Shown here: positions 14,343 to 60,605 of the stretch, one piece after another
Layout: each line of letters starts with the position of its first letter
Numbering within the stretch: position 1 is the first letter of the stretch
Source of the DNA: Haliotis cracherodii
Lineage: Eukaryota
DNA: 64,000 nt
Direction of reading: 5' to 3'
Assembly: GCF_022045235.1 (NCBI RefSeq)
Contig: NW_027266279.1
Span: 12,152,001-12,216,000 of the forward strand
Notes under the pieces: generated by a model
What the model was told of the DNA's origin: nothing
The model's input: the letters and a program-made list of their open reading frames with translations, nothing else
Database searches by the model: none
Position numbers and translations under genes: made by a program

Positions 14343-14497
14343 TGGGGGGTAGCCTAGTGGTAAAAGCGTTCGCTCGTCACGCCGAAGGCCCGGGTTCGAT
14401 TCCCGACATGGGTACAATATCTTAATATCTTGTCCCCCGTCGTGATATTGCTTGTATATTGCTAAAAGCGGAGTAAACCCATACTCGTTCACTCACT
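14343..14497 (+). mobile_element. tRNA-derived SINE family A copy
   Basis: TAGCCTAGTGG A box, GGTTCGATTCCC B box; matches 20616-20779. Confidence 0.8.
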
Positions 14498-20100: not shown

Positions 20101-23100
20101 TCGGTGATTCCGTCATTCAGATCGCTAACCCACTCAAAACACTGAACTCAACCCATGCCGCTTCACTCAATATATTTGCTAACACCAAAGAGTTCGCGTT
20201 TTATTTAGTCATGAAAGAATGGAGATAAACATACTGTGTTTTCAATGTAGAGCTAGGTTACCTGTAGATTTAACCGCGCTAAATTTAACATTTGAAACCT
20301 CACGCTGCGTGTTCGGTTCCAAATTTAGCGGGGTTAAATGTACAGGTAACCTAGCTCTACATTGTAAACACAGTATGTTTATCGCCTAATTATATGAGTA
20401 TTATATTTCAATTCTGTAATGAAAATATCGTCCTTCACCTTCGTCACTTTGCTAACCGAACAGGATATGAAGACCATGATGACAGTCATACAGCGTTTTG
20501 TGGTCTTAATGTATGATCGGGCCGGCATCGGTACAACAGTTGATTAGGCACGCAAAGACTTATTCACAAAGAAATCCCACATGGGCAATACATGTACCGT
20601 CCTCCATTGTATTATGGGGCGGTCGGGTAGCTTAGTGGTTAAAGCGTTCGCTCGTCACGCCGAAGACCCGGGTTCGAATCCCGACATGGGTACAATGTGT
20701 GAAGCCCAAATCTGGTTCCCCCGCCGTGATATTGCTGGAATATTGCTAAAAGCGGCGTAAAACCATACTCACTCACTCCATGGTATTATATCATCATTTA
20801 ATTATCATAACACTGTTTGGATACACTCAGTAAACATGGATGAGAGCAGGGATGAGGATTCTGATAAAGTTTCTGCACCAGTCTGGACGAGATTCATCCT
20901 CGATTGTCTGGTGTATATCTCCTCCCATTATAAACAATACCTTGCAGCCTTTTTGGAAAGTGGTGTCGCCATCTTCATCTTTCTGATCAGTGACGTCCTT
21001 CAGAGTGTCTGCCGCACCATGAGTGTAATCTGCTTTGAGTGAGTGAGTGAGTGAGTATGGTTTTACGCCGCTTTTAGCAATATTCCAGCAATATCACGGC
21101 GGGGGACACCAGAAATGGGCTTCACATATTGTACCCATGTCGGGAAACGAACCCGGGTCTTCGGCGTGATGAGCGAACGCTTTAACCACTAGGCTACCCG
21201 ACCGCCCCTAATCTGCTTTGACGATAATTCTAAGCGCCGTGTTATTCAAATAATAGCCAATGTATCAAGAGCATTTTACAGATGAGAGATGCATTACACT
21301 GGACAATCGATATTGAATGAGCGTATCACTGGAATCATTATGTTTCAGGGTTAAATACTGAACCCTCCATTAAAGTCGTCATAGCGAAAAGAGGGAGTAC
21401 CGCTATCCTGCCATGCTCTGTTGCCAGCCAAACGGATTCATATGTGAGTACTTTTGACAGGGCCCCGTCTTCAACAGCCAATACTTGTCGTAAGAAGTCA
21501 CCGTGATTAACGGGATCGGGTGGTCAGGCTTGCTCACTGGTCTAGACGTTGTATGTCCTGTACTGGTCTAGACGTTGTATGTCCTGCACTGGTCTAGACG
21601 TTGTATGTCCTGTACTGATCTAGACGTTGTATGTCCTGCACTGAGCTAGACGTTGTATGTCCTGCACTGGTCTAGACGTTGTATGTCCTGTACTGATCTA
21701 CACGATGTATGTCCTGCACCGAGCTAGACGTTGTATGTCCTGCACTGGTCTAGACGTTGTATGTCCTGCACTGGTCTAGTCGTTGTATGTCCTGTACTGA
21801 TCTACACGATGTATGTCCTGCACTGGTCTAGACGTTGTATGTCCTGTACTGATCTACACGATGTATGTCCTGCACCGAGCTAGACGTTGTATGTCCTGCA
21901 CTGGTCTAGACGTTGTATGTCCTGCACTGGTCTAGACGTTGTATGTCCTGTACTGATCTACACGTTGTATGTCCTGTACTGATCTAGACACCGTATGTCC
22001 TGCACTGAGCTAGACCTCGTATGTCCTGCACTGAGCTAGACGTTGTATGTCCTGCACTGGTCTAGACGGTGTATGTCCTGCACTGGTCTAGACGTTGTAT
22101 GTCCTGCACTGGTCTAGACGTTGTATGTCCTGCACTGGTCTAGACGTTGTATGTCCTGCACTGGTCTAGACGTATGTCCTGCACTGAGCTAGACGTTGTA
22201 TGTCCTGCACTGGTCTAGACGTAATATGTCCTGCACTGGTCTAGACATTGTATGTCCTGCACTGAGCTAGACGTTGTATGTCCTGCACTGGTCTAGACTT
22301 TGTATGTCCTGCACCGAGCTAGACGTTGTATGTCCTGCACAGACCTAGACGTTGTATGTCCTGCACTGAGCTAGACATTGTATGTCCTGCACAGAGCAAG
22401 ACGTTGTATGTCCTACACTGGTCAAGACGTTGTATGTCCTGCACTGAGCAAGACGTTGTATGTCCTGCACTGATCTAGACGTTGTATGTCCTGCACCGAG
22501 CTAGACGTTGTATGTCCTGCACTGAGATAGACGTTGTATGTCCTGCACTGAGATAGACGTTGTATGTCCTGCACCGAGCTAGACGTTGTATGTCCTGCAC
22601 CGAGCTAGACATTGTATATCCTGCACTGGTCTAGACGTTGTATGTCCTGCACTGAGATAGACGTTGTATGTCCTGCACTGAGATAGACGTTGTATGTCCA
22701 GCACTGGTCTAGACGTTGTATGTCCTGCACTGAGCTAGACGTTGTATGTCCTGCACTGAGATAGACATTGTATGTTCTGCACCGAGCTAGACATTGTATG
22801 TCCTGCACTGAGCTTGACGTTGTATGTCCTGTACTGGTCTAGACGGTGTATGTCCTGCACTGAGCTAGACGTTGTATGTCCTGCACTGAGCTAGACATTG
22901 TATGTCCTGCACTGGTCTAGACATTGTATTAAGTGTGTGAGACATTGTCTGTGTCATGAGCTTCTCCATTAACTGTTGACCAACACTGTGCTGTTTTCAA
23001 CGACCATTCTTGTAGTTATTTCAATATGTTTATGTCAAATCTTAGAGAATATCTGCTTGTTATCACTCAGTTGCAGATTGAAAGAATGAATGTATTGCAC

Positions 23101-44260: not shown

Positions 44261-44755
44261 AAAATTTTATGGCAGACATGTGGAGGAAATGTGTAAATTT
44301 GACGCATCATGGACAAATAATGATGTCCGATGCAGTTCCTATTTTGACATTTTCCATTGGTTTAAGTAGGGAACATTCATTTTGAGAATGAGGAGTGAAC
44401 AATATTGTAATGCATTATGGAACATACTCAATAGAAATTGTGTTTATACAGTAGCATGTCAAATTTCCATTTCAAGAAAGGGAACTGAAAGTTTAACAAA
44501 GCCAAGGAAAACGACAAATGATTGCAACCATGATAGCACTCACATTGACAATATCAGGTGTTTGTGAAAGTGGACACATAAAAAACTATCAATACTGCAT
44601 GTATTCGCGTAACATCCGGTTCATAAGGTCAAACGTGTAGCTTGTCCACTATAGCATATGTGAATATGAGAGGAATAACATTTCAGAGTAAGTTAGTTAT
44701 TTCCAGATGGATGTTCACATTATTCAGTATTGCTTGGCAACGGTATAAAAATCTA

Positions 44756-45304
44756 AGTAGTTAAGTACTGTGGTATGGAACACCTCAGGATTATGGAACC
44801 ACTCAGGATTATGGAACCGGAAGTGACGTCACATCCTCTGTGACGTCACTTCCGGTCACGTGACCTGCGCAGTGCATGATGGGACTCTGCGCGTGCGCCT
44901 CCAAGATGGCGTCGCTTCCGTTTCCGGTGGCGTGCGCCTCCAAGAGGGCGTGGCTTCCGTGTCCGGTGGCGTGCGCCTCCAAGAGGGGCGTCGCTTCCGT
45001 GTCCGGAGTCGCGCGCCTCCAAGAGGGGCGTCGCTTCCGTGTCCGGAGGCGCGCGCCTCCAAGAGGGGTGGCGCTTCCGTGTCCGGTGGCGCGCGCCTCC
45101 AGGGGGTGGCGGTGGTGGAGGGAGGGAGGGAGGGAGGGAGGGAGGGAGGGTGGTGGTGGTGAAGGGAGGGAGGGAGGGAGGAAAGGAAGGAAAGGAGGAG
45201 GAGACGGGTTCATGGTGTGGGTGGGTGGGTGGGTGGGAGGGTCGTCAAAGCAAAGGAGGAAAGTTGTCTTTCGGGAGAGATGGGTGGCCCTGAAAAGGGC
45301 CGTT
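44756..45304 (+). repeat. Left terminal inverted repeat (549 bp)
   Basis: Reverse complement of 56077-56647; contains TATGGAAC repeats, a 41-bp palindrome, 39-40 bp GC-rich tandem units, (GGGA)n and a histone-type stem-loop. Confidence 0.96.
44816..44856. promoter_or_regulatory. Palindrome of two ETS-CRE composite sites in the left TIR
   Basis: ACCGGAAGTGACGTCACA-TCCTC-TGTGACGTCACTTCCGGT: 18-bp perfect stem, followed by E-box GTCACGTGAC. Confidence 0.75.
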
Positions 45305-45307
45305 TTG
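45264..45307 (-). terminator. Histone-type 3' stem-loop and downstream element (copy 1)
   Basis: Minus strand CAAAAC-GGCCCTTTTCAGGGCC-ACCCA-TCTCTCCCGAAAGACAA; stem-loop 45286-45301, 10 nt after the stop of ORF 45312-45650. Confidence 0.88.
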
Positions 45308-45311
45308 ATAT

Positions 45312-45650
45312 TTACATGCATGTGCACGCCATGGTGCAAAGGCACGGGTGGACTTTCATTTGACGTCTGACAGGACACCTACTGGTGTGCGTTAACCGAC
45401 GCACGTAGGTGTCCTTGAGGATGGTCTTACAGTACACACATTCGAAAGTCCCATCCCGTGCCCTTGTGCCAAGGGCGTACACAGGCAGGCCCCCTTGGCA
45501 TCTGTCGCATTGCCATGCTGGAGACCATGGTGGTGGTGGTGGTGATGCTTCTTTCCACCCGGGCAAAGGTTGTTTCACTGTGGCGATTTCTAAATCCCAG
45601 TTTTCTTTCATGTGGTAGTTGTTGCTGTTGCTGTTGCTGCTGCTCATCAT
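45312..45650 (-). CDS. Small Cys-rich putative zinc-binding protein (112 aa)
   Basis: CDRC...CVYC pair and terminal CLCTMACTC; ATG ~50 nt downstream of the TATAAAA of promoter copy A; stop next to the histone stem-loop. Confidence 0.68.
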   Translation of the reverse strand: MMSSSNSNSNNYHMKENWDLEIATVKQPLPGWKEASPPPPPWSPAWQCDRCQGGLPVYALGTRARDGTFECVYCKTILKDTYVRRLTHTSRCPVRRQMKVHPCLCTMACTCM

Positions 45651-45659
45651 GATGAATCA

Positions 45660-45962
45660 ATTTTACAAGTGACACTGACCCACTCGAATCCACTGTTGTT
45701 TTATAGGAGAGGTACTGACACCCACCCTCCTGGTTGGTTCGCCAGACCGCAGCTCCGATTGGTTCGTTCCGGGGCCTGGTCAGCACCTCGGTTTTCCAAA
45801 ACGGACCGACCCCTGTGTTTCTTTTCCATAGGAAATGGATTTTACCATGGGAGAGAAAGCACAACCCCGGTTCGGCCAATCAGAGCCCCACCTGGTCCGA
45901 GCACCGCTTCTGATTGGTCGACAACCCAGGCTTCGGATTGGTCCCATTTCGATCCGGTTTTT
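45660..45962 (-). promoter_or_regulatory. Repeated multi-CCAAT/TATA promoter module, copy A
   Basis: Homologous to 47332-47630, 52040-52275 and 55030-55300; TATAAAA on the minus strand at 45705-45699. Confidence 0.8.
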
Positions 45963-46503
45963 TCTTCTTGGGTAGCCTTGGTATTTTTTTTTGAGGTAGA
46001 CGGTCGTCTGAATGCTAAAGGAAGGTGGACCTTCATCGGTAGACATGAACGTGGGAATGCCTACGTGATGTACGTGTGTGTCACTCCCATGCCAATCGGA
46101 ATGTCATGTGTGCATGTGTGTGTGTGGGTATGTGTGTATGTCTTCAAACAGACGTTGACGTTGATGTATAGAATAGCGTGTGGTCAGGCAAAACGTAGTG
46201 TCGCGATGTGAACGTCATGTACACGTGGTGTCCTGTGTGTGTGTGTGTGTGTCTTCAAATTAGTATTATTATGATTATTTAAGGATACCGAGGTGTTGAC
46301 ACCCGTGTAAGTCGACAGACGTACTGTGACACGTGTTTTCATGCACACGTGATGTTTGACGTGGTGTACCACGTGTCTCTATTGATCTATTTATATTTAT
46401 ATCTATTTATTTTATTTTTAGACGTGTGCCTCCAAGAGGCCTAGGGGAGGGTGTGGGTTCTTTGTTTTGGATTGTCATTGTTTGGCAAAGCAAAGGTAGA
46501 AAG

Positions 46504-46549
46504 TTGTCTTTTGGGTGAGATGGGTGGCCCTGAAAAGGGCCGTTTTGGG
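46504..46549 (-). terminator. Histone-type 3' stem-loop and downstream element (copy 2)
   Basis: Minus strand CCAAAAC-GGCCCTTTTCAGGGCC-ACCCA-TCTCACCCAAAAGACAA; stem-loop 46526-46541, ~310 nt downstream of the BIR gene stop. Confidence 0.86.
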
Positions 46550-46854
46550 AAAGAAGAAAACTTTTCTGCTGCTGTCCAAGAAGAATGATCATGTCCAAGC
46601 TTATTGACAAGACAAGGATCGTCGAAGGGGTACTTGCTGCCATCTGGGTATGTCATCGGGGTGACCACCGTGACACCACTTGTGGGTCCAACAAAGAAAA
46701 GTTTGTTGGAAACAGGAAGCGGAAACAGATTGAACCATTCACAACAACAACTGTAGACAAACGGGAACTTGAACGGGAACTGGAACGGGAACTTGAACGG
46801 GGAACTGGAACGGGAACTTGAACGGGAACGCAGGACACGAGAAACGTCGTCCTC

Positions 46855-47331
46855 CTAGGCAGCCGGCTCTGCTACGTCATTCGTGTACCTCTGTTTCTCT
46901 TCGCAGAGATAGTGTAGTTGTAGTTGCTTCTGGTGTTTCACCAGCCCGGTTAGCTTGAGGTAATCGCAGTCTGGGGACCACTTGTGATGTGCCGCCCAAG
47001 GATTGTCGTGGGGTGCCCATTGTCTCAGCCGCACACCACATTGGAAACAGCACACACCATCGGCACCCTGAGTGTAGACAAAGCCCGCATGAGCCATCTC
47101 CTCAGCAGTCTGATACATTTGCGTGGGCCACGTCTCAAACGAAGCGAGCCTTCTTTCAAAGCGCAGATAATAGTGCGATGGTGTTTGACTGAGCAGTGAC
47201 ACCGCCTCCTCGGCATGACTCTTACTCCAACATGCACGAGTATCTGTACCCTCCATTCCCACATCTTCGCTACGCGTCGTCGTCGTACCACTCCTCTTTG
47301 TTTCAGCCATTCTTGATTTTATCACATCCAT
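46855..47331 (-). CDS. Single-BIR-domain inhibitor-of-apoptosis-like protein 1 (158 aa)
   Basis: RRLASFETWP...MAHAGFVY...DGVCCFQCGVRLRQW...DNPWAAHHKWSPDCDYL: complete BIR with CxxC...H...C zinc ligands. Confidence 0.93.
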   Translation of the reverse strand: MDVIKSRMAETKRSGTTTTRSEDVGMEGTDTRACWSKSHAEEAVSLLSQTPSHYYLRFERRLASFETWPTQMYQTAEEMAHAGFVYTQGADGVCCFQCGVRLRQWAPHDNPWAAHHKWSPDCDYLKLTGLVKHQKQLQLHYLCEEKQRYTNDVAEPAA

Positions 47332-47630
47332 TTTACAAGTGACACTGACCCATTCGAATCCACTCTTGTTTTATGGGGGAAGAACCGGATCGAAATGGGG
47401 TGCTTCCTGGTTGGTCCAAAACGCAACGCACCGATTGGTTCGTTTCGGGGCCTGGCCTGCACCTCGGTTTTCCAAAACGACCCGACCCCTGTGTTTCTTT
47501 TCCATAGGAAATGGATTTTACCATGGGAGAGAAAGCACAACTCGGGTCGGGTGCTGCCTTCTGATTGGTCGAGGCTGTCTTCTGATTGGTCGACAATCCA
47601 GGCTTCGGATTGGTCCGATTTCGATCCTGT
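47332..47630 (-). promoter_or_regulatory. Promoter module copy B, between the divergent BIR1 and pPolB genes
   Basis: Four ATTGG boxes, CATAAAA at 47375-47369, and the same 5' leader (GTGGATTCGA.TGGGTCAGTGTCACTTGTAAAA) as copy A. Confidence 0.8.
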
Positions 47631-47708
47631 TTTGGGGAAGGGTTGTCCATCCATCAGACGTTCAGACCCTCTTAGAGTACAGGCGTTCATCAGACACACA
47701 TCGTTATC

Positions 47709-50700
47709 ATGACGAGCAACCAAAGTACGCCCTATCGTTTGGAGAGGAAAGATACCACCCGCTCCAGACGGTTAAGAACTGCTAATCATACCTATCGTTT
47801 GACTTTCAACCCAGACTACTTGGACACCGTACCACCGGAACGCGTCCCCCTGGAACTGCCAGCTTTATTTGACAGGGTGATCGATGACTTTTATGAACAG
47901 ATGTCAGGTCAGAAGGGAGATCGTATTGGTCTAGGTATCGATCATCCCGCTTTGAACACCCCCATACGGATTCCCTTTCGACGTTTTGAAGATCTCCATG
48001 GGCCAGATATTTTGCAGGCCGTGGAAAAAGTCCAACAGTCCAACAAAGACCTGAACATCGATGACACCATGGATGTGACTTTAGTACACGTCGCAGATCC
48101 CGACAGGCTAGGATCGGGCAGTGGTGCTCCCCGGGTGAAAAACGTGATTGGACTCGAAGCTTTTTTAACACGCAAAAGGTGCATCGTACGGATCAAGAAC
48201 GAAGATCAATCCTGTTTGGCACGGGCCCTGGTGGTGGCACAGCATTATGCCCACAAACCCCATCCTTTGACCCCAGCATGGAAAGCCCAGTTAGTGAGAC
48301 TGATGAGAACGAATCGCGTCGACGTTCAAGGCCTACGGGCACGGGCCTTGTTTCGACGCCTTGGCCTGCCTGAAGGTCCCTGTCGGGGGCTGGACGACCT
48401 CGCACGCGTGGGACGGGCCTTGACCCACCTGCATTATCAACTGAAAGTCTACAGTCAAGAGGTGGGTCAGAGACTGTTGTACAAGTGTGATGAGGCTCCA
48501 CCTCACGCCACGGTGCTGCATCTATACCATCATGATCAGCACTACGATGTCATCACTTCCATGTCCGCTTTTTACGGGTCTGACCATTACTGCGAACGTT
48601 GCGACAAACGTTACGACCATCCCGAAAAACATCCCTGCACCAAGGAATACCGCTGTCACCGCTGCTTCTACTCTAGCTATTGTGGACCCCAGGAAGAGCT
48701 CGGGATCCCTTGCTTGACATGTCAAGGTTGGTTCCCCAATCCAACGTGTTACACCCGACATCTCCAGTCACCGTCAGAGGGAAAACCCAGCGCCTGTCAA
48801 TCGATTCACAGGTGCCCGAACTGTTTTCAGCTGGTCCGCGTCTTGGAGACCCCCATGGTTCACCACGAGTGCTTCGACGAAGAACATCCCTGCTTGGTGT
48901 GCCGAGAACCCATGACCCCAGACCATCGCTGTTACATGACGCCTCTCCGTGAAGAAAACGAGGAGGGGGAGGAGGGGGAGGAGGGGGAGGGGGAGGGGGG
49001 AGAGGAAACGGAGAAGGAGGGGGAAGAGGAACAACATCACGTACGAGACGACGTCCAATACGTCTTCTACGATTTTGAATGCATGCAAGACACGGGGGAA
49101 CACATTCCAAATTTGTGCGTGGTGCAACTAGGATGTGGACGATGCATCAGTGAAGTGAGCAAGAACTTGTGCGAACACTGCCCATGGAGAGAAGAAGGGT
49201 ATGGTCCCAGCCGTGAGATCGTGTTTCGAGGGCCCACCACGCGACATGATGTGTGTGTGTGGTTGACCACGTTGTGTGAAATACCCAAGAAGAAGAAGCC
49301 CAACCCGGAGGAAGAGGAGGACAGCACACGCAAGGGCACAACAGCCCCCCTGGGGAAAAAAAGAAAACGGGATGGCACCCCCTCAAGAAAGGACGCTACC
49401 AAACGTCAACGGCATGCATCACCCCAGCAGGAGGCGGAGGAGACGGAAGAGGTGGAGGAGGTGGAAGAGGTCATGGAAGTGGAGAAAACAAAGAAGCCAA
49501 AGAACAAGAACACCTCCTGCCATACAGTCCCGAAGGAGGATCGCATTTATGTGATGGCCCACAATGCACGATCCTATGATTTACACTTAATCCTGAAGGG
49601 CCTGTCCCCCCTCCTGGTGACGCTCCCCACCAAGATTCGACATGGCCAACACATTTTGCAGATGACCCTGGGACGGCTGTGTTTCGAAGACAGCTTAAAT
49701 TTCATCCCTTACCCCCTGAAAGCCTTTCCCAAGAGCTTTGGGCTGAAAGAAATGAAGAAAGGGTACTTTCCACACTTTTTCAATACGAGAGTCAACCAGA
49801 CCTACAGAGGTCCCTATCCACCAGCCGTCACGTACGATCCCGATGGCATGTCTCCCGCGGAACGCTCAGCCTTCCTCCAGTGGCATACCCAAAAAGTGCA
49901 AGAAGGAGCCTTGTTCGACTTACAAGAAGAACTTTTAGCTTACTGCCAGAGCGATGTGGACATTTTGAGACGGGGATGCGCCGACTTCCGACAGAACGCC
50001 ATCCACTCGGTGGGCATGGATCCCTTTGTGGAAGTGATGACAGCTGCTGCGTTCACCATGAAATCCTTCCGAAAACACGACCTGAAACCCAATACCATCG
50101 CCATTCTTCCACCTCAAGGCTACCAACCCAAGAGAAACTATTCCCAGGCCTGTATGCACTGGCTCCACTCTCTGATGGAAAGGGACCCCCATCTGCACCT
50201 CCAGCACGCCAGGAATGGCGGTGAAAAAGAGTTCACCTGTGGAGAGGGTCAACATCGGTACAGCGTGGATGGGTACGATCCAGCGACAGGCACCGTCTAC
50301 GAATTCCTGGGCTGTTTCTGGCATGGGTGCAACACCTGTCACAAGACCCGACGTGGAGAACCGCATCCCGTCCTGGGCACGTCGTTGGGAGCCCGTTACA
50401 CCGACACCCACTACCGCTTGAGTCTCTTGAGTCAACACCCTGAGGTGAAACGGGTCGTCGCCCTGTGGGAGCACGAATTTACGAAAATGCAACGGGAGGA
50501 CTCCGCTCTACGTGCTTTCTTGCAGGGACCCCACTGTCGTCACGTCCCCGGGCCACTCAACCCTCGCGACGCCTTCTATGGAGGACGCACCAATGCCACG
50601 CGATTATGCTACGAAGCCCAAGAAGGTGAAACCATCAAGTACATCGATATTTGTTCCCTTTATCCCTACATTTGTAAGACCGGAGCGTTTCCCACGGGAC

Positions 50701-51971
50701 ACCCGACCCTTCTCCATCAACCCCCTGTGGACACGTTGTTTGAACTGAAAGGCCTGATCCAATGCCGTGTCCTACCCCCGAAACGACTCTACCATCCGCT
50801 ACTGCCTTACAGATTGGGCGGCAAACTGCTCTGTCCTTTGTGCCGTACGTGTGCCGATACCCGGTCAGACTCCCCCTGCGAGCACACGGACGAAGAGAGG
50901 TCATGGGTGGGGACGTACGCCACCGTAGAACTCCAGGAAGCCGTGAAGAAGTATGACTACCGGGTGCTTCAGATCTACGACGTTTGGCATTTTGACACCT
51001 TTGCACAGCATGACCCCGACACCCAGCAAGTGGGACTCTTTGACACTTACATCGATCGACATTTCAAGGAGAAGCTCGAAGCCAGCGGATACCCCGAAGG
51101 ATGTACGGATCACGACGCTTACATCCAGGAGATCTACGACAAAGAAGGCATTCGGTTGGACAAGGACCGCATCGAAAAAAATCCAGGACGCCGCACGATT
51201 GCCAAGATGCAACTGAATTCGCTCTGGGGCAAGTTTGGGCAACGGGTAGACTACAGTCAGAACGTCTATATGAACGATCCTGCACAGTACTTTGCCTTGT
51301 GGAGGGATGACCGCAATACCATCGAGGATGTGACCGTTGTCAACGAACACATGGTGGATGTGACCTATACCCAGCGGAAAGAATTCCAAACCCCTCATTC
51401 TCATTTCAATGTCGCCATCGCTGCTTGGGTCACCGCCCAAGCACGTCTCAAGCTGTACGAGACCCTTGCCCTGGTGGGCCGCAGGGTCTTGTACTTTGAC
51501 ACGGACAGCGTCATTTACATTCATCGACCCCACGACGCGAATCCAGAGCTGGGTCATTCGTTGGGTGAGTTTACGGATGAACTGGACGGAAACACCATCA
51601 AGACGTTTGTGTCAGGAGGTCCCAAAAACTATGGCTATGAGTTAATGAACCCCAGACCCGATGGAACGCGCACGACCTGCAAAGTGCGAGGGTTCACTTT
51701 GAATTACCGAAACCAACGCCATCTCAACTTTGACACCATGAAAGGACTGATACTGGGACAACGGTCTGGGAAAGAGGAGGAAGAGAAAATCAGTTTGGAT
51801 TACCCTCATCAGATCATTCGAAAAGGACCTCGGCACGAAAACGCACTCGTGACCCGCCCCACCCGAAAAGACTATCGTACCGTGTACGACAAGCGACGTG
51901 TGGTCTACGACGACACCACAGGCCTACCTGTAGACACGCTACCCTTTGGGTACAGAGACGACTTTCTATAA
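47709..51971 (+). CDS. polB: Protein-primed family B DNA polymerase (Polinton pPolB), 1420 aa
   Basis: ExoI VFYDFEC, ExoII AHNARSYD, ExoIII YCQSDVDIL, FYGGRT, motif A YIDICSLYP, motif B KMQLNSLWGKFGQ, motif C YFDTDS, GPKNY, KVRGF; uninterrupted ORF. Confidence 0.97.
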   Translation: MTSNQSTPYRLERKDTTRSRRLRTANHTYRLTFNPDYLDTVPPERVPLELPALFDRVIDDFYEQMSGQKGDRIGLGIDHPALNTPIRIPFRRFEDLHGPDILQAVEKVQQSNKDLNIDDTMDVTLVHVADPDRLGSGSGAPRVKNVIGLEAFLTRKRCIVRIKNEDQSCLARALVVAQHYAHKPHPLTPAWKAQLVRLMRTNRVDVQGLRARALFRRLGLPEGPCRGLDDLARVGRALTHLHYQLKVYSQEVGQRLLYKCDEAPPHATVLHLYHHDQHYDVITSMSAFYGSDHYCERCDKRYDHPEKHPCTKEYRCHRCFYSSYCGPQEELGIPCLTCQGWFPNPTCYTRHLQSPSEGKPSACQSIHRCPNCFQLVRVLETPMVHHECFDEEHPCLVCREPMTPDHRCYMTPLREENEEGEEGEEGEGEGGEETEKEGEEEQHHVRDDVQYVFYDFECMQDTGEHIPNLCVVQLGCGRCISEVSKNLCEHCPWREEGYGPSREIVFRGPTTRHDVCVWLTTLCEIPKKKKPNPEEEEDSTRKGTTAPLGKKRKRDGTPSRKDATKRQRHASPQQEAEETEEVEEVEEVMEVEKTKKPKNKNTSCHTVPKEDRIYVMAHNARSYDLHLILKGLSPLLVTLPTKIRHGQHILQMTLGRLCFEDSLNFIPYPLKAFPKSFGLKEMKKGYFPHFFNTRVNQTYRGPYPPAVTYDPDGMSPAERSAFLQWHTQKVQEGALFDLQEELLAYCQSDVDILRRGCADFRQNAIHSVGMDPFVEVMTAAAFTMKSFRKHDLKPNTIAILPPQGYQPKRNYSQACMHWLHSLMERDPHLHLQHARNGGEKEFTCGEGQHRYSVDGYDPATGTVYEFLGCFWHGCNTCHKTRRGEPHPVLGTSLGARYTDTHYRLSLLSQHPEVKRVVALWEHEFTKMQREDSALRAFLQGPHCRHVPGPLNPRDAFYGGRTNATRLCYEAQEGETIKYIDICSLYPYICKTGAFPTGHPTLLHQPPVDTLFELKGLIQCRVLPPKRLYHPLLPYRLGGKLLCPLCRTCADTRSDSPCEHTDEERSWVGTYATVELQEAVKKYDYRVLQIYDVWHFDTFAQHDPDTQQVGLFDTYIDRHFKEKLEASGYPEGCTDHDAYIQEIYDKEGIRLDKDRIEKNPGRRTIAKMQLNSLWGKFGQRVDYSQNVYMNDPAQYFALWRDDRNTIEDVTVVNEHMVDVTYTQRKEFQTPHSHFNVAIAAWVTAQARLKLYETLALVGRRVLYFDTDSVIYIHRPHDANPELGHSLGEFTDELDGNTIKTFVSGGPKNYGYELMNPRPDGTRTTCKVRGFTLNYRNQRHLNFDTMKGLILGQRSGKEEEEKISLDYPHQIIRKGPRHENALVTRPTRKDYRTVYDKRRVVYDDTTGLPVDTLPFGYRDDFL

Positions 51972-52039
51972 CTTTTTTTTTTGCATGACAAGGGGATCGA
52001 AACTGAATCGACATGAACCCCTTACAGAAAAAAAAAAAA

Positions 52040-52275
52040 AAAAACGGATCGAAATCGGACCAATCCGAAGCCTGGGTTGTCGACCAATCAGAGACCGTGC
52101 TCGAGCCATGGTGGGCTCTGATTGGTCGAACCGAGGTTGTGCTTTCTCTCTCACGCTACAAGCCTAACCCTATGGAAAAGAAACACAAGGGTCGGTCCAG
52201 TTTGGAAAAATGGAGACTCAGACCAGACACCGGAACGGACCAATCAGAAAGCAGGACCTCCGTGGCTTTTAATAC
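52040..52275 (+). promoter_or_regulatory. Promoter module copy C (most diverged)
   Basis: GGATCGAAATCGGACCAATCCGAAGCCTGGGTTGTCGACCAATCAG... shared with the other copies; TTTTAATA in the TATA position; upstream of the gene at 52481. Confidence 0.75.
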
Positions 52276-52480
52276 GCCCGATGCTCTCCGGTCATCACTT
52301 TTCACTGAACCGACCAAGCAACCACATCGCCCCCCTCTGATTGATGTTCCTCACGTTGTGTTGGTTGTTGGCGTTTTATCTGGAAGAAACACGTGTTTGG
52401 AGAGAGTACCATCAAGTGTTGACGCACCTCCGTGAAGACTTGAAAAGAAACAACAACGAACAGAACATCCGGACAACATC

Positions 52481-53565
52481 ATGTCGAAACGGTTGAATGA
52501 CAAGACACGAAGCGACATGAGTGGCCAAGGAAGCAGTGGAGATGGGAACGGTGACATGACTGCTGAACTGTGGGGTGAAGTGTACGACTTGCTGTGTTTA
52601 AAGATGAAGACCGACGACGCGTACGCCAAGTTACGTGCGAAGGGCGACAACCTGATGTGCGAACAGATACGTTCAAAGATGAGGAAGCTGACTGAACCCG
52701 AGAAAGGCACATCGAAGAAGACGATAAAGAAGATCCAGAAGAAAAAGACAAGCAAGCCCACAGTCGTTGTGATCCCCACAGCAGCAGCAACACCCACCAC
52801 CACCACCACCACATCAGCAACAGCAACAACGGCTGCAGCGACCACAGACATCGAAACGATGGGGACATCCTTTTTGAAACCTGCAACGCCTGCAAAAAGA
52901 CGATCACGGAAGAAATTATCTCTGAAGATCTCTCCTCAAGAACAGCTGTAAGTACCCTTGCTCTTCTTTGTCTCAGTCATTCTTGATGTGATTCATATTC
53001 ATGACCTATTCCTATGATAAATGGACTCTGTCCTATGATTGACAGGACCCCTGATGTCAGTTCAGCCCAGGCCGTGCTAGAACAGTGGTGGGAACAAACC
53101 CCTCGGGAGCCCACCTATTCACCGAATGCCCCTGCTGTGACGATGGCGACGGGTGACCGTGAGGATCATGAAGCGCTCAAGCTGGCCACTCTCCCTTCCA
53201 TGGATCTGGACACGCTCCCCCTGCTTGAGGCTTCTTGGTCACCAACATCCCCGGAAGATGTTCATGTCTACTCCTCAGGTACGCCCCTGGTTTGCGACGA
53301 TAATGAAGATGATGATGATGTGGATGACAACGACGTTGACCTGGATCCTTATGGAGAAGCTCAACTCACTCCCCTACAACGCGGATGTCGTATTTGCCGA
53401 CACAACAACATGTTAAGATACATCAGTTGCAACAGCGGGCAAGTGATGTGTCATACCTGTGGTCTGGAGCTCATAGACTGTACTTGTAGTATGTTGACCT
53501 ATGACCGCATAATGACACATGATGACATGCCTATCACATCTGCTGAGGATCACATCTTATGGTGA
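52481..53565 (+). CDS. Spliced ~328-aa protein with LxCxD, acidic tract and C4 zinc finger (E1A/E7-like layout); exons 52481-52947 and 53046-53565
   Basis: Donor CT|GTAAGT at 52948 and acceptor TTGACAG|G at 53045 join the two ORFs in frame; C-terminal LVCDDNEDDDDVDD...GCRICRH...MCHTC; AATAAA at ~54005. Confidence 0.72.
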
Positions 53566-54303
53566 TCCTCCTCTTCACTCGAAGAACTTGTCAACACGTA
53601 TGCTGCAACCGTGATCAAGTGATGTGTCATGTCTGTTTCAGGGAGACCATAGACTGTACGTGTTGAACGGATGGACCTCTCACAGGGTTGAGGGAGGACC
53701 ACCTCTTATGGGCTTGAAGATGGAAGAGGAAAACGTTGTCGCGTTATTGTTGTTGTTGTAGGGACATGCAAAGCACTCCCTCCTCCATTGACTTTTCGTA
53801 TTTCCGTTGTATCTGGTTGTGATTGGTTTTTTTTCATGATTAAACAGTGATTGATTGAACTGACTCTTTGTGTCTTGATTGATCTCAACTCCAATAGAGT
53901 GCCGAACCGAGGGTAGAGGTTGAGTTGAGATGTCGTTGACGTTGTCTGTCCGTCTGTCTGTCTGTGCATCTGTCATGTCAGTGCACACCCAAGTGTAAAA
54001 TTAAAATAAAAAATAGATAAAAGAGAAAGGCCATGCTTGAAAGATCAGCTGCCTGGTGTCGGTCATTCCAGTACGCATCGATCCCCACACCCCCTCCCCG
54101 TGTACCATGTCATGTCATGGATCGTGTCACGAATCATGCCGTGTGTCCGTCAACCCAAACACAGGATGACGTCACGTGATGAGGTGAAGGAGGTGGAGGA
54201 GGTGGAAGCTAAGGTCATGACCTTCCGTGGAAGGGAGTAGGGTGGAGAGTTTCATAAAAGCAGGCGAACCCTCAGACCTTCTTTCAGTGAAGTCACCGTC
54301 ATC

Positions 54304-54816
54304 ATGGAGCAAAGACGTTCTATGAATGCCATGTCATCCTCCCGAGATGTCGTCACCGATTCCGAGTGGGTGTCTGAAAAGGCGAGAGAACAAGAAGCGA
54401 GAAAACATTCCCTCTTTAGGGACGACACGTGGCGACTCAGTGACATTCTGGAGGGACCTTTTCCTTCTTACACCCTGTGTCATCCTTCTCATCCCCACTA
54501 TGATTCATTTCAAGAACGTCTGAGATCTTTTAAAACGTGGCCTCAACAGATGACCCAGACCCCGTATGACATGGCCATGGCTGGCTATTTCTATCCAGGA
54601 CAAGGTGATTGTGTGACCTGTTATTGCTGCGGTGTGGCACTCCGCCAATGGGAAGCCACAGACCAACCCTGGAAAGAACATCTGAAGCACGCCAAAGTCC
54701 CCTGCGAATACTTGTGTGTGTTTTGTCCTGATGGAGAAGTGAACGAAAAATACAGACGTTTGGTGTCCCAAGAAGCACGGAAGAGAAGAGTCGAGTGTCT
54801 TGTTCACCCCAAGTGA
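54304..54816 (+). CDS. Single-BIR-domain inhibitor-of-apoptosis-like protein 2 (170 aa)
   Basis: ERLRSFKTWP...MAMAGYFY...DCVTCYCCGVALRQWEATDQPWKEHLKHAKVPCEYL; CATAAAA ~50 nt upstream and TGACGTCACGTGA at ~54167. Confidence 0.93.
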   Translation: MEQRRSMNAMSSSRDVVTDSEWVSEKAREQEARKHSLFRDDTWRLSDILEGPFPSYTLCHPSHPHYDSFQERLRSFKTWPQQMTQTPYDMAMAGYFYPGQGDCVTCYCCGVALRQWEATDQPWKEHLKHAKVPCEYLCVFCPDGEVNEKYRRLVSQEARKRRVECLVHPK

Positions 54817-55029
54817 CAACGTTTCTTTTTTCAAAGTGTACAGACGTTCATACCCCCAGTGTTCACAAAAGTCACAGGGACGGTCCCCCCTCATCCTGTG
54901 ACTTTTTGTTTTGTGGTGTTGGTTCATGTGAGCGAGGGGATTAAATTTTTTTTAAAAACTCATAGTGGTGTTCTGTGGTCTGTAGGATGAAGAAAAACAA
55001 AACAGGATCGAAATGCACACCCCGATAAA

Positions 55030-55300
55030 AAAAACCGGATCGAAATTGGACCAATCCGAAGCCTGGGTTGTCGACCAATCAGAGACCGTGCTCGGGTCAT
55101 GCGGGGCTCTGAATGGTCGAACCGGGGTTGTGCTTTCTCTCCCATGGTAAAATCCATTTCCTATGGAAAAGAAACACAGGGGTCGGTCCGTTTTGGAAAA
55201 CCGAGGTGCAGACCAGGCCCCGAAACGAACCAATCGGGGGCGCGGCCTGGGGAACCAATCAGGAGGGTGGGTGTCAGTGACTCTCCTATAAAAACAAAAC
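55030..55300 (+). promoter_or_regulatory. Promoter module copy D
   Basis: CCAAT at 55051, 55075, 55230, 55255 and TATAAAA at 55287; upstream of the zinc-knuckle ORF. Confidence 0.82.
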
Positions 55301-55342
55301 AAGAGCGAAGCCACTCACACACACACACACACACTGCATTCT

Positions 55343-55945
55343 ATGAAACCCATCATGCCAGCTCGATACAGTTGTATGAAGTGCCAGACCGACAGTCACA
55401 GTTACCTGTACTGCCCTGAAGTGACATGCCTCGAGTGTGGCACTCAAGGTCACCGTCACTATGTCTGTCCGAAGATGAACAGTCAAGAGAAGCAGGAGAA
55501 TCGGAACCTGGACCGCTGTTACAACTGTGAAGCCCTGGGTCATTTCGCTGCAGATTGCCCAGAACCCAGTCGAAAGAAGACTCCCCATCGCCTGGACCAC
55601 TGTTACAACTGTCAAGCCCTGGGTCATTTCGCTGCAGATTGCCCAGAACCCAGTCGAAAGAAAACGTCAGCAACACCGTCCACGTCGACACCCGTGGCAC
55701 CCGTGACACCCGTGACACCCGTGACACAAGTGGTTCATCTCATCGAAGACGTGCACGTCGATGTCCTCGACCTAAAAGAATACCTCGCACAACTCCGGGC
55801 GGACATCACACCTCTTGTAGAGAAAAGAAAACGGGTCAGAAGCCTCTCAAGAAAGCACGCTTCAAAGCGCCGACGACACCTTCAGTCCGAGGATGAGATG
55901 GAAGTAGAGGGTGAAGAAGAGAGATCATCTGAACAAAGTGACTAA
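55343..55945 (+). CDS. Four-CCHC zinc-knuckle nucleic-acid-binding protein (200 aa)
   Basis: CMKCQTDSHSYLYC, CLECGTQGHRHYVC, CYNCEALGHFAADC, CYNCQALGHFAADC (all C-x2-C-x4-H-x4-C); basic NLS-like and acidic tail. Confidence 0.88.
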   Translation: MKPIMPARYSCMKCQTDSHSYLYCPEVTCLECGTQGHRHYVCPKMNSQEKQENRNLDRCYNCEALGHFAADCPEPSRKKTPHRLDHCYNCQALGHFAADCPEPSRKKTSATPSTSTPVAPVTPVTPVTQVVHLIEDVHVDVLDLKEYLAQLRADITPLVEKRKRVRSLSRKHASKRRRHLQSEDEMEVEGEEERSSEQSD

Positions 55946-56074
55946 CGCATGGGGCCATGCTACCCCACTGTTTTTTTACCAGTGTCCCATCGTTTGCAGT
56001 TTTTCCAGTGTTCCAGTGTTCCAGTGTTCCTGACGTTTCCTGTCGTTTCCAGTTTCCAGTTTCCAGTTTGTTTT

Positions 56075-56117
56075 CCAACGGCCCTTTTCAGGGCCACCCA
56101 TCTCTCCCGAAAGACAA
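56075..56117 (+). terminator. Histone-type 3' stem-loop and downstream element (copy 3)
   Basis: CCAAC-GGCCCTTTTCAGGGCC-ACCCA-TCTCTCCCGAAAGACAA; stem-loop 56080-56095, ~135 nt after the zinc-knuckle stop. Confidence 0.88.
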
Positions 56118-56647
56118 CTTTCCTCCTTTGCTTTGACGACCCTCCCACCCACACCATGAACCCGTCTCCTCCTCCTTTCCTCCCTCCCTCCCTCCCTCAA
56201 TTCACCACCACCACCCTCCCTCCCTCCCTCCCTCCCTCCCTCCCTCCACCACCGCCACCCCCTGGAGGCGCGCGCCACCGGACACGGAAGCGCCACCCCT
56301 CTTGGAGGCGCGCACCTCCGGACACGGAAGCGACGCCCCTCTTGGAGGCGCGCGCCTCCGGACACGGAAGCGACGCCCCTCTTGGAGGCGCACGCCACCG
56401 GACACGGAAGCCACGCCCTCTTGGAGGCGCACGCCACCGGACACGGAAGCCACGCCCTCTTGGAGGCGCACGCCACCGGAAACGGAAGCGACGCCATCTT
56501 GGAGGCGCACGCGCAGAGTCCCATCATGCACTGCGCAGGTCACGTGACCGGAAGTGACGTCACAGAGGATGTGACGTCACTTCCGGTTCCATAATCCTGA
56601 GTGGTTCCATAATCCTGAGGTGTTCCATACCACAGTACTTAACTACT
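56077..56647 (-). repeat. Right terminal inverted repeat (571 bp)
   Basis: Reverse complement of the left TIR with one extra 39-bp unit and small indels in the (GGGA)/(GGGT) tracts. Confidence 0.96.
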
Positions 56648-56846
56648 AATCTACACCCAAACGTCGCTATTAAATTATAAGAAAGCCGTTGTTATCGGTA
56701 AACGGTATCTACTTTAGATTTGTAAAGACTAAAGGACAGGAGGAAAACGCTAACATGCACTGACCGAGGGGCCTTCTTCAAGTCCGAACGCTTCGGGAGT
56801 CACTGTCGCCTCGTTGATCACCCCCGTCGCCCTGTCCGTGCAGCCC

Positions 56847-57684
56847 CCGCTTGACCAGTCCAGATGCCTGCCTGGTGATCGCTCTACCGCTTGACCAGTC
56901 CAGATGCCTGCCTGGTGATCTCCCTACCGCTTGACCAGTCCAGATGCCTGCCTGGTGATCTCCCTACCGCTTGACCAGTCCAGATGCCTGCCTGGTGATC
57001 TCTCTACCGCTTGACCAGTCCAGATGCCTGCCTGGTGATCTCCCTACCGCTTGACCAGTCCAGATGCCTGCCTGGTGATCTCTCTACCGCTTGACCAGTC
57101 CAGATGCCTGCCTGGTGATCTCCCTACCGCTTGACCAGTCCAGATGCCTGCCTGGTGATCTCTCTACCGCTTGACCAGTCCAGATGCCTGCCTGGTGATC
57201 TCCCTACCGCTTGACCAGTCCAGATGCCTGCCTGGTGATCTCTCTACCGCTTGACCAGTCCAGATGCCTGCCTGGTGATCTCTCTACCGCTTGACCAGTC
57301 CAGATGCCTGCCTGGTGATCTCTCTACCGCTTGACCAGTCCAGATGCCTGCCTGGTGATCTCTCTACCGCTTGACCAGTCCAGATGCCTGCCTGGTGATC
57401 TCCCTACCGCTTGACCAGTCCAGATGCCTGCCTGGCGATCTCTCTACCGCTTGACCAGTCCAGATGCCTGCCTGGCGATCTCCCTACCGCTTGACCAGTC
57501 CAGATGCCTGTCTGGTGATCTCTCTACCGCTTGACCAGTCCAGATGCCTGCCTGGTGATCTCTCTACCGCTTGACCAGTCCAGATGCCTGTCTGGTGATC
57601 TCCCTACCGCTTGACCAGTCCAGATGCCTGCCTGGTGATCTCTCTACCGCTTGACCAGTCCAGATGCCTGCCTGGTGATCTCCC
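56847..57684. repeat. 40-bp minisatellite (CCGCTTGACCAGTCCAGATGCCTGCCTGGTGATCTCYCTA)
   Basis: About 21 almost identical units. Confidence 0.96.
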
Positions 57685-59861: not shown

Positions 59862-60605
59862 TAGCCAGACTAGCACCAAGAAGGCCAGAACTCCAGGACA
59901 AGATCAGAACATGCCTGTAAAGCCACCAGTCTCTCACAGCCAGACTAGCAGCAAGAAGGCCAGAACTCCAGGACACGTTCAGGGCACGCCTGTAAAGCCA
60001 CCAGTCTCTCACAGCCAGACTAGCAGCAAGAAGGCAAGAACTCCAGGACACGTTCAGGGCACGCCTGTAAAGCCACCAGTCTCTCACAGCCAGACTAGCA
60101 GCAAGAAGGAGTACTCCAGGACACGTTCAAGGCACGCCTGTTAAGCCACCAGTCTCTCACAGCCAGACTAGCAGCAAGAAGTCCAGAACTCCAGGACACG
60201 TTCAGGGCACGCCTGTAAAGCCACCAGTCTCTCACAGCCAGACTAGCACCAAGAAGGCCAGTACTCCAGGACACGTTCAGGGCACGCCTGTAAAGCCACC
60301 AGTCTCTCACAGCAAGACTAGCACCAAGAAGGCCAGTACTCCAGGACACGTTCAGGGCACGCCTGTAAAGCCACCAGTCTCTCACAGCCAGACTAGCAGC
60401 AAGAAGGAGTACTCCAGGACACGTTCAAGGCACGCCTGTTAAGCCACCAGTCTCTCACAGCCAGACTAGCAGCAAGAAGGCTAGCACGTCAGGACACATT
60501 CAGGGCACGCCTGTAAAGTCACCAGTCCCTCACAGCCAGACTAGCAGCAAGAAGGCCAGTACTCCAGGACACGTTCAGAGCACGCCTGTAAAGCCACCAG
60601 TCTCT
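59862..60605. repeat. ~75-bp minisatellite (AGCCAGACTAGCAGCAAGAAGGCCAGAACTCCAGGACACGTTCAGGGCACGCCTGTAAAGCCACCAGTCTCTCAC)
   Basis: About 10 tandem units. Confidence 0.93.

Follow-up and report, generated by a model that had tools for sequence, protein, structure and literature searches.

A polymerase-bearing mobile element of Haliotis cracherodii and its integrase- and capsid-bearing partner: probable halves of a bipartite Maverick

We analyzed a 64,000-nucleotide stretch of the genome of Haliotis cracherodii (NCBI RefSeq assembly GCF_022045235.1, contig NW_027266279.1, positions 12,152,001 to 12,216,000 of the forward strand; hereafter the window), and in particular the 11.9-kb mobile element at 44756-56647 within it. 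This element, A, has a gene for DNA polymerase B of the protein-primed type (pPolB), and its terminal inverted repeats (TIRs) are also used by a separately integrated element of 10.3-10.6 kb, B, and by palindromic satellites. Haliotis is a farmed, threatened mollusc genus, in which the A/B family is young and multi-copy. An earlier note on this DNA had read A as a self-replicating element that couples S-phase entry, a block of apoptosis and histone-style expression; the evidence described here makes it probable instead that A is one of two complementary halves of a Maverick/Polinton.

Element A and its genes

The window copy begins with AGTAGT, ends with ACTACT, and is flanked by a 6-bp target-site duplication (TSD), AATCTA, at 44750-44755 and 56648-56653. 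Its TIRs are about 550 bp long (44756-45304, plus strand; 56077-56647, minus strand), with all 232 of the outermost 232 nt complementary (100%), and the left TIR, behind its AGTAGT end, holds arrays of 18-bp and 39/40-bp repeats. A Pfam scan of 10 ORFs (open reading frames), taken out of the 55 listed, identified pPolB, two BIR-only proteins and a zinc knuckle, and found neither integrase nor capsid among those 10. The pPolB gene (1420 aa; 47709-51971, plus; PF03175, E 4e-35) and the two BIR genes, BIR1 (158 aa; 46855-47331, minus) and BIR2 (170 aa; 54304-54816, plus), were among those that the earlier note had named. At least 2345 homologues of pPolB were found at E<=1e-30 among 7979 scored; an apparent second polymerase family (P0018, 65%) turned out to be a gene model of the same polymerase. 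The nearest annotated proteins to the genes of A belong to H. cracherodii and H. rufescens.

Three further genes complete the inventory: zf112, a paired-CxxC protein of 112 aa (45312-45650, minus); a spliced "oncoid-like" (E1A-like, E) gene that joins ORFs of 156 and 183 aa (52481-53652, plus); and a 200-aa zinc-knuckle protein (55343-55945, plus; Pfam). Comparison of zf112 with older copies indicated purifying selection (omega 0.16, 24 shared changes); its assignment to zf-BED was a weak lead only (0.88). Each of the four transcription units is preceded by one copy of a promoter-like module, about 300 bp long and containing several CCAAT boxes: module 1 (45656-45961, minus), which also has GGATCGAAA and a TATA box; module 2 (47326-47633, minus), between the divergent BIR1 and pPolB starts, the promoter B of the earlier note; module 3 (52032-52260, plus); and module 4 (55029-55293, plus). 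CCAATC occurs 21 times in the 11.9-kb element versus 23 times in the remaining 52 kb. The earlier note had all genes diverging from module 2; the orientation of the arms bears this out, the left on the minus strand and the right on the plus strand, but a single promoter does not fit, as the module occurs four times.

Partner element B, shared ends and the history of the pair

In a genome-wide search with the TIR, 40 end matches out of 415 candidates were scored and 20 TIR-bounded elements were fetched, comprising 16 A copies, three B copies and one palindrome. Along most of their length, the 16 A copies can be aligned with the window copy, at about 95-99% identity. B has A-like TIRs and TSDs of its own, and it lacks pPolB. 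Its genes are, in order, a small minus-strand gene, the ATPase gene and three ORFs that Pfam does not firmly place, then the integrase gene, a small ORF of hydrophobic product, an ORF of 348 aa, one of 128 aa with a basic product, one of 442 aa, and the protease gene; one of the fetched copies carries an internal deletion. Pfam identified the A32 ATPase and an rve integrase with a chromodomain, and gave weak matches for the protease (E 0.04) and the capsid (E 0.005). The structural model of the 442-aa protein (predicted local distance difference test score 92.6) matches the capsids of Sputnik, mavirus, iridovirus and PBCV-1, with a best E of 2e-17 to known capsid structures; as modeled, the protein is a double jelly-roll major capsid protein. 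The 348-aa ORF is a putative minor capsid gene, judging by its position and its likeness to a sister family. Thus the earlier note's view of a tumor-virus early region with the late region removed holds for the window copy, but the late genes still exist, carried by another element that shares the TIRs of A.

The ends tie the two elements together. The first 260 nt of B are 99% identical to A ends, and among the 28 left ends compared in a tree, one from B was identical to two from A; A and B fell on opposite sides of a branch in 0 of 200 bootstraps. Perfect 6-bp TSDs flank 17/17 A copies, 4/4 palindromes and eight of the nine independent B insertions with two resolved ends (the ninth is off by 3 nt; one further locus, with unresolved ends, is left out of this count). 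Such TSDs are a hallmark of Mavericks (PMC8097293). Because A carries TSDs but no integrase, it must be inserted in trans. The left arm peculiar to B was covered in full by 17 of 40 scored matches, at 87-100% identity, a count that includes three matches representing one triplicated insertion. The B loci L070, L072 and L074 have the same flanks, so that they are one insertion inside a triplicated host segment.

The palindromic satellites (L036, L088, L090 and L091/L092) are 9-10 kb long and have the same TIRs and their own TSDs. Each arm consists of the TIR, about 2.5 kb of repeat-like filler, a histone-type stem-loop, and the small gene of B with its module, mirrored in the other arm; the palindrome L088 is 99.8% self-complementary over its whole length. 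One A copy (L027/L028) has two TIR variants, with eight differences in 215 nt, and a clean TSD, which suggests recombination between replicating molecules.

We then considered whether the two gene sets occur together in undivided copies. These searches scored the best candidates only (for example, the best 131 of 340 and the best 150 of 513) in one assembly, so locus counts are lower bounds, and the proximity lists, drawn from hit tables that extend down to other families, leave out matches to those families and any second fragment of a locus. Among scored candidates at >=90% identity, the family ATPase lay within 12 kb of 0/51 polB loci, and polB within 12 kb of 0/25 ATPase loci; likewise, none of 48 E-gene loci had an integrase within 10 kb, and none of 20 integrase loci had an E gene within that distance. 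Of 57 scored capsid loci, three had a polB no more than 25 kb away: for two the distance is 18 kb, beside a separate TIR-bounded A copy, and the third is a decayed joint. Young loci (>=95%) numbered 36 for A versus 15 for B. Contigs from runs labeled organisms B and C cover both halves, with 30/30 and 26/30 bins of the B stretch, respectively; this coverage speaks to presence, not to layout. Cover in the runs X8 and X14, which may be RNA, is uneven and was given no weight in either direction as to expression, and read depth was not taken as a measure of copy number.

Older loci preserve other arrangements. In A itself, an ATPase-gene deletion scar (54004-54316, plus; 79-89% like partner B) consists of the ATPase 5' flank and first codons followed by the 3' flank. 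Nine older loci (L120, L122, L124, L128, L143, L145, L147, L149 and L153) have an intermediate layout, with polB or the E gene, the ATPase and BIR2, and neither integrase nor major capsid after the ATPase. In five decayed loci (L053, L086/87, L126, L141/142 and L155), genes of A and B stand head to tail on one strand; three of the five have a common junction, in which the E-gene flank is followed by the ATPase and the next B gene. All five have undergone heavy deletion, and their segments retain 69-91% identity to the copies of today. Read most simply, an undivided ancestor was followed by an intermediate A with the ATPase, and this by the present pair.

Selection was tested by comparing non-CpG changes with a base-matched expectation, separating changes shared by >=2 copies from those in a single copy. 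Among B-layout copies, shared changes indicated purifying selection on the integrase (omega 0.16, 10 changes, p 0.005), on the capsid (omega 0.23, 11 changes, p 0.02) and on four B genes pooled (omega 0.27, 33 changes, p 0.0002), and omega for single-copy changes was about 1. In A, the same was found for pPolB (omega 0.39, 58 shared changes, p 0.0004) and BIR2 (omega 0.14, seven shared changes, p 0.02); among young A copies, no selection signal came from BIR1, the E gene or the zinc-knuckle gene. Full-length frames are retained for pPolB in 14/16 other A copies, and for the integrase in 8/10 and the capsid in 7/10 B copies. In vertebrate Mavericks, selection on the capsid gene has been used as an argument for a particle stage (PMC8097293). 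Selection on both halves gives indirect support for their mutual dependence.

Relatives outside the A/B family were also found. A sister Maverick in the same genome (L049:7017 to L051:4514) is undivided and 16.5 kb long, has the TSD GTCGTC and no histone stem-loop, resembles the pair at 45-57% in pPolB and 51% in the capsid, and carries a PC4-domain gene and a BIR gene. More distant families (L096-L100), with capsids at about 30%, are present in many copies with open frames and have a BIR gene behind the ATPase; no pPolB of theirs turned up in the stretches fetched. Among viral contigs there were no pPolB relatives. Metagenomes yielded six capsid loci among 63 candidates, the sole close one being 72% like that of B, on a 2-kb contig (L135:653-1129) that has a BIR gene inserted between core and capsid genes and is not long enough to reveal how the whole element is laid out.

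Histone-type 3' ends and the spliced gene

Three matches to the histone 3' stem-loop (Rfam RF00032, Histone3) lie in A, each in sense after an ORF. Stem-loop 1, with its downstream AAAGA (45261-45306, minus), has its stem 10 nt past the zf112 stop, stem-loop 2 (46501-46546, minus) is 313 nt past the BIR1 stop, and stem-loop 3 (56075-56120, plus) is 134 nt past the zinc-knuckle stop. As the earlier note had seen, the first and third sit at the inner border of each TIR and point the same way as the outermost ORFs. Over 39-41 nt, AAAGA included, the stem-loops of A agree to 83-85% with histone 3' ends of the host. Like the RF00032 family and the host cluster, they have a 6-bp stem, a 4-nt loop, AAC/ACC flanks, and AAAGA about 15 nt downstream. 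Unlike host histone 3' ends, the stem-loops of A and B stand behind genes that do not encode histones; one stem pair shows a compensatory difference from the host core histones, and the stem lies 10-313 nt from the stop, versus 28-33 nt in host histone genes.

The signals are also present in older copies, and they are absent from eight stretches of other Maverick families. Only zf112, BIR1, the zinc-knuckle gene and the small gene of B have one behind them; the Rfam scan of A found none after pPolB, the spliced gene or BIR2. Poly(A)-like hexamers occur at 53839, 54005 and 54940, and an AATAAA lies beyond stem-loop 2 (46411-46416). No exact stem-loop match occurred in viral contigs, and a search for U7 snRNA (Rfam RF00066) gave no match in the tested sequence and none in the controls either. 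In B, the right TIR (L044:5297) ends within the stem-loop unit, and the full signal is present only at the left end. The stretch 46140-46800 of the window, with stem-loop 2 and a 12-bp repeat, is unalignable in 8/16 other A copies.

Of the model in the earlier note, which had ascribed both the 3' ends and the promoters to histone-type signals, the stem-loops are the firmest component. The 3' ends do match those of the host. On the promoter side, GGATCGAAA and GACCAATCAG are common to the module and to host histone promoters, but not beyond chance, as 12-32 of 200 shuffles reach their counts. The stem-loops are probably captured host histone 3' ends; judging by their placement, they likely end small accessory transcripts without poly(A), and any coupling to S phase would be limited to the small accessory genes that carry them. 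On the non-histone genes of a mobile element, histone-type 3' ends would put host RNA processing to an uncommon use.

The spliced gene has one intron at 52948-53045 and a second, optional one at 53279-53641, which takes out the sequence LVCDD together with both CxxC pairs. Its exon junction was found in 13/15 annotated relatives, and both GT-AG introns are retained in 15/15 young copies. The motif exon is missing in 10/15 annotated relatives, nine of which end as the second splice predicts. Among 18 sequences of this gene, none had the LxCxE motif and none had the CR1 motif; the motif of the window copy is LVCDD (LxCxD). The Leu of LVCDD is replaced by Met or Val in three older copies, and Met occupies this position in 4/5 annotated proteins that retain the motif exon. 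The paired CxxC adjoins an acidic tract. The protein has no match in Pfam, NCBIfam, PDB or Atlas, and all 15 of its homologues are Haliotis proteins. Adenovirus E1A and the "Oncoid" genes described, together with IAP genes, in adintoviruses (PMC8502044) have in common with it the acidic tract, the paired CxxC, and alternative splicing by which the zinc region is retained or lost; it is unlike them in having LxCxD or MxCxD for LxCxE and no CR1, and sequence similarity to them was not found. The identification as an E1A-like protein in the earlier note is weak, the proposed motif being both non-canonical and removable by splicing.

Elsewhere in the window, the right flank outside the TSD holds tandem arrays at 56847-57682 (40 bp, 21 copies) and 59863-60605 (75 bp, 10 copies), and Rfam tRNA-like matches at 14349-14407 and 20621-20692 are probably heads of short interspersed elements.

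A bipartite reading, its rivals and known systems

The anatomy is one of complementary gene sets, common TIRs, separate 6-bp TSDs and no young undivided copy among the scored candidates. We conclude that A, the polymerase half, and B, the integrase/capsid half, probably form a bipartite Maverick/Polinton, with complementation in trans likely. The pPolB of A would copy both linear molecules from the common TIR origin, the integrase of B would insert both, and the capsid, ATPase and protease of B would package molecules of 9-12 kb; A, at 11.9 kb, is similar in size to B, at 10.4 kb, and to the palindromes, at 9-10 kb, which would be consistent with separate packaging. In the history that we envisage, an undivided ancestor would have given rise to complementary deletion derivatives, an ATPase-holding intermediate A would have spread, the undivided form would have died out, and the gene-poor palindromes would ride along as full cheats. 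The fuller proposal, of an animal DNA virus that integrates and has a double jelly-roll capsid and a naturally bipartite genome, with separately packaged halves of 10-12 kb, complementing deletions, full cheats and captured histone 3' signals, we hold to be evenly poised between true and false.

Several observations weigh against the bipartite reading. The genome contains other intact Maverick families with their own integrase. The minor capsid, protease and ATPase genes were not singly significant in B-layout copies, the changes per gene were few (10-11), and many tests were run. The TIR tree has only one well-supported branch, and the A and B labels cluster on it more than in shuffles. Some of the fossil joints may be A-B recombinants, and L128 is clearly shuffled. 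An undivided copy could have gone unscored or unassembled, or could exist in other individuals, and the organism B and C contigs are not long enough to show layout. In one alternative, A and B are non-autonomous deletion derivatives moved by a full-length parent in another haplotype, in an unassembled locus or in an exogenous virus. Undivided layouts did once exist, the searches are incomplete by design, and non-autonomous derivatives are common among transposons (PMC6431247). Such a parent is nevertheless unlikely, since passenger genes should drift, yet pPolB in A and the integrase and capsid in B are under purifying selection; moreover, the joined loci are all decayed and none of those scored is young, and B has a left arm of its own over a range of 87-100% identity.

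Alternatively, A could copy itself and borrow an integrase, and perhaps capsids, from other Mavericks, with B a one-way satellite that needs A. Other families do have open integrase frames (36-46% identity), the 16.5-kb sister element also starts with AGTAGT and has a 6-bp TSD, and young A loci outnumber young B loci. However, the TIR of the sister element is unrelated past the terminal bases (best E 0.02), whereas B has its whole TIR in common with A and an integrase under selection, and we regard borrowing as quite improbable. Least credible to us is the model of the earlier note, a stand-alone early-region replicon with E1A-like S-phase drive, a block of apoptosis and histone timing. In its favor are pPolB, two BIR proteins, the CCAAT-rich modules and 3' ends that are truly of histone type, as well as the Oncoid and IAP genes described in adintoviruses (PMC8502044). 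The gene inventory of A does look like an "early" module, but the S-phase chain hangs on an Rb motif that is non-canonical and unconserved, and neither the spliced gene nor pPolB has a stem-loop behind it. In this genome BIR genes belong to the usual cargo of Mavericks outside the A/B family as well, being present in two further families, both without the stem-loop. As a stand-alone replicon A is ruled out by its having 6-bp TSDs yet no integrase, and by the presence of the missing genes on B.

The bipartite pair has much in common with Mavericks/Polintons (adintoviruses, Polintoviricetes; PMC8097293, PMC8502044): (AGT)2 ends, TIRs, 6-bp TSDs, pPolB, an rve integrase with a chromodomain, an ATPase, a protease, major and minor capsids, and a cargo of Oncoid-like and IAP genes. 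Intact Mavericks hold their core genes in one unit of 12.7-24.6 kb, with intronless core ORFs (PMC8097293, PMC8502044). Unlike them, A and B divide the core genes between two separately integrated molecules, and they have histone-type 3' ends and a spliced accessory gene. Measured against an intact Maverick, with rve integrase, ATPase, protease and capsids inside one TIR pair, A alone falls short, and A and B together are complete. Surveys of Mavericks ask for pPolB and integrase within 20 kb (10.1101/2023.08.22.554363, 10.1101/2024.01.15.575659), a rule under which split elements would be scored as decayed remnants and others may be hidden; one nematode study reports pPolB with a TIR and no integrase at 10 loci, with no partner (10.1101/2024.01.15.575659). 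Neither a bipartite Maverick nor histone stem-loops in Mavericks were found in the papers searched, Repbase, the founding papers of 2006-2007 and supplements lying outside the search.

Bidnaviruses (PMC8502044, PMC8363768) likewise combine a Polinton-type pPolB with a split genome and matching segment ends. Unlike them, A and B have a double jelly-roll capsid, an integrase and TSDs, and Pfam matched neither a parvovirus-type NS1 nor a single jelly-roll capsid among the A and B ORFs scanned. Why viral genomes split, and by what route, has been asked for a long time. Here, complementary essential genes lie on separate, end-sharing molecules, and no current undivided form occurs within the assembly among scored candidates, as in a multipartite genome. 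The closest parallel is the model of multipartite viruses as complementing cheats (Leeks et al., PMC10159356), with which the pair has in common replicase and capsid halves, replacement of the undivided form, and gene-less full cheats. It differs from that case in being an integrated double-stranded DNA element with a genomic fossil record, and the co-occurrence of A and B would be ensured by inheritance in the host genome, not by co-infection. Since undivided fossils, an intermediate, both halves and gene-poor parasites are found in one genome, the complementing-cheats model becomes testable on dated copies; if the bipartite reading is true, the whole transition from undivided to bipartite is kept as dated fossils in a single genome.

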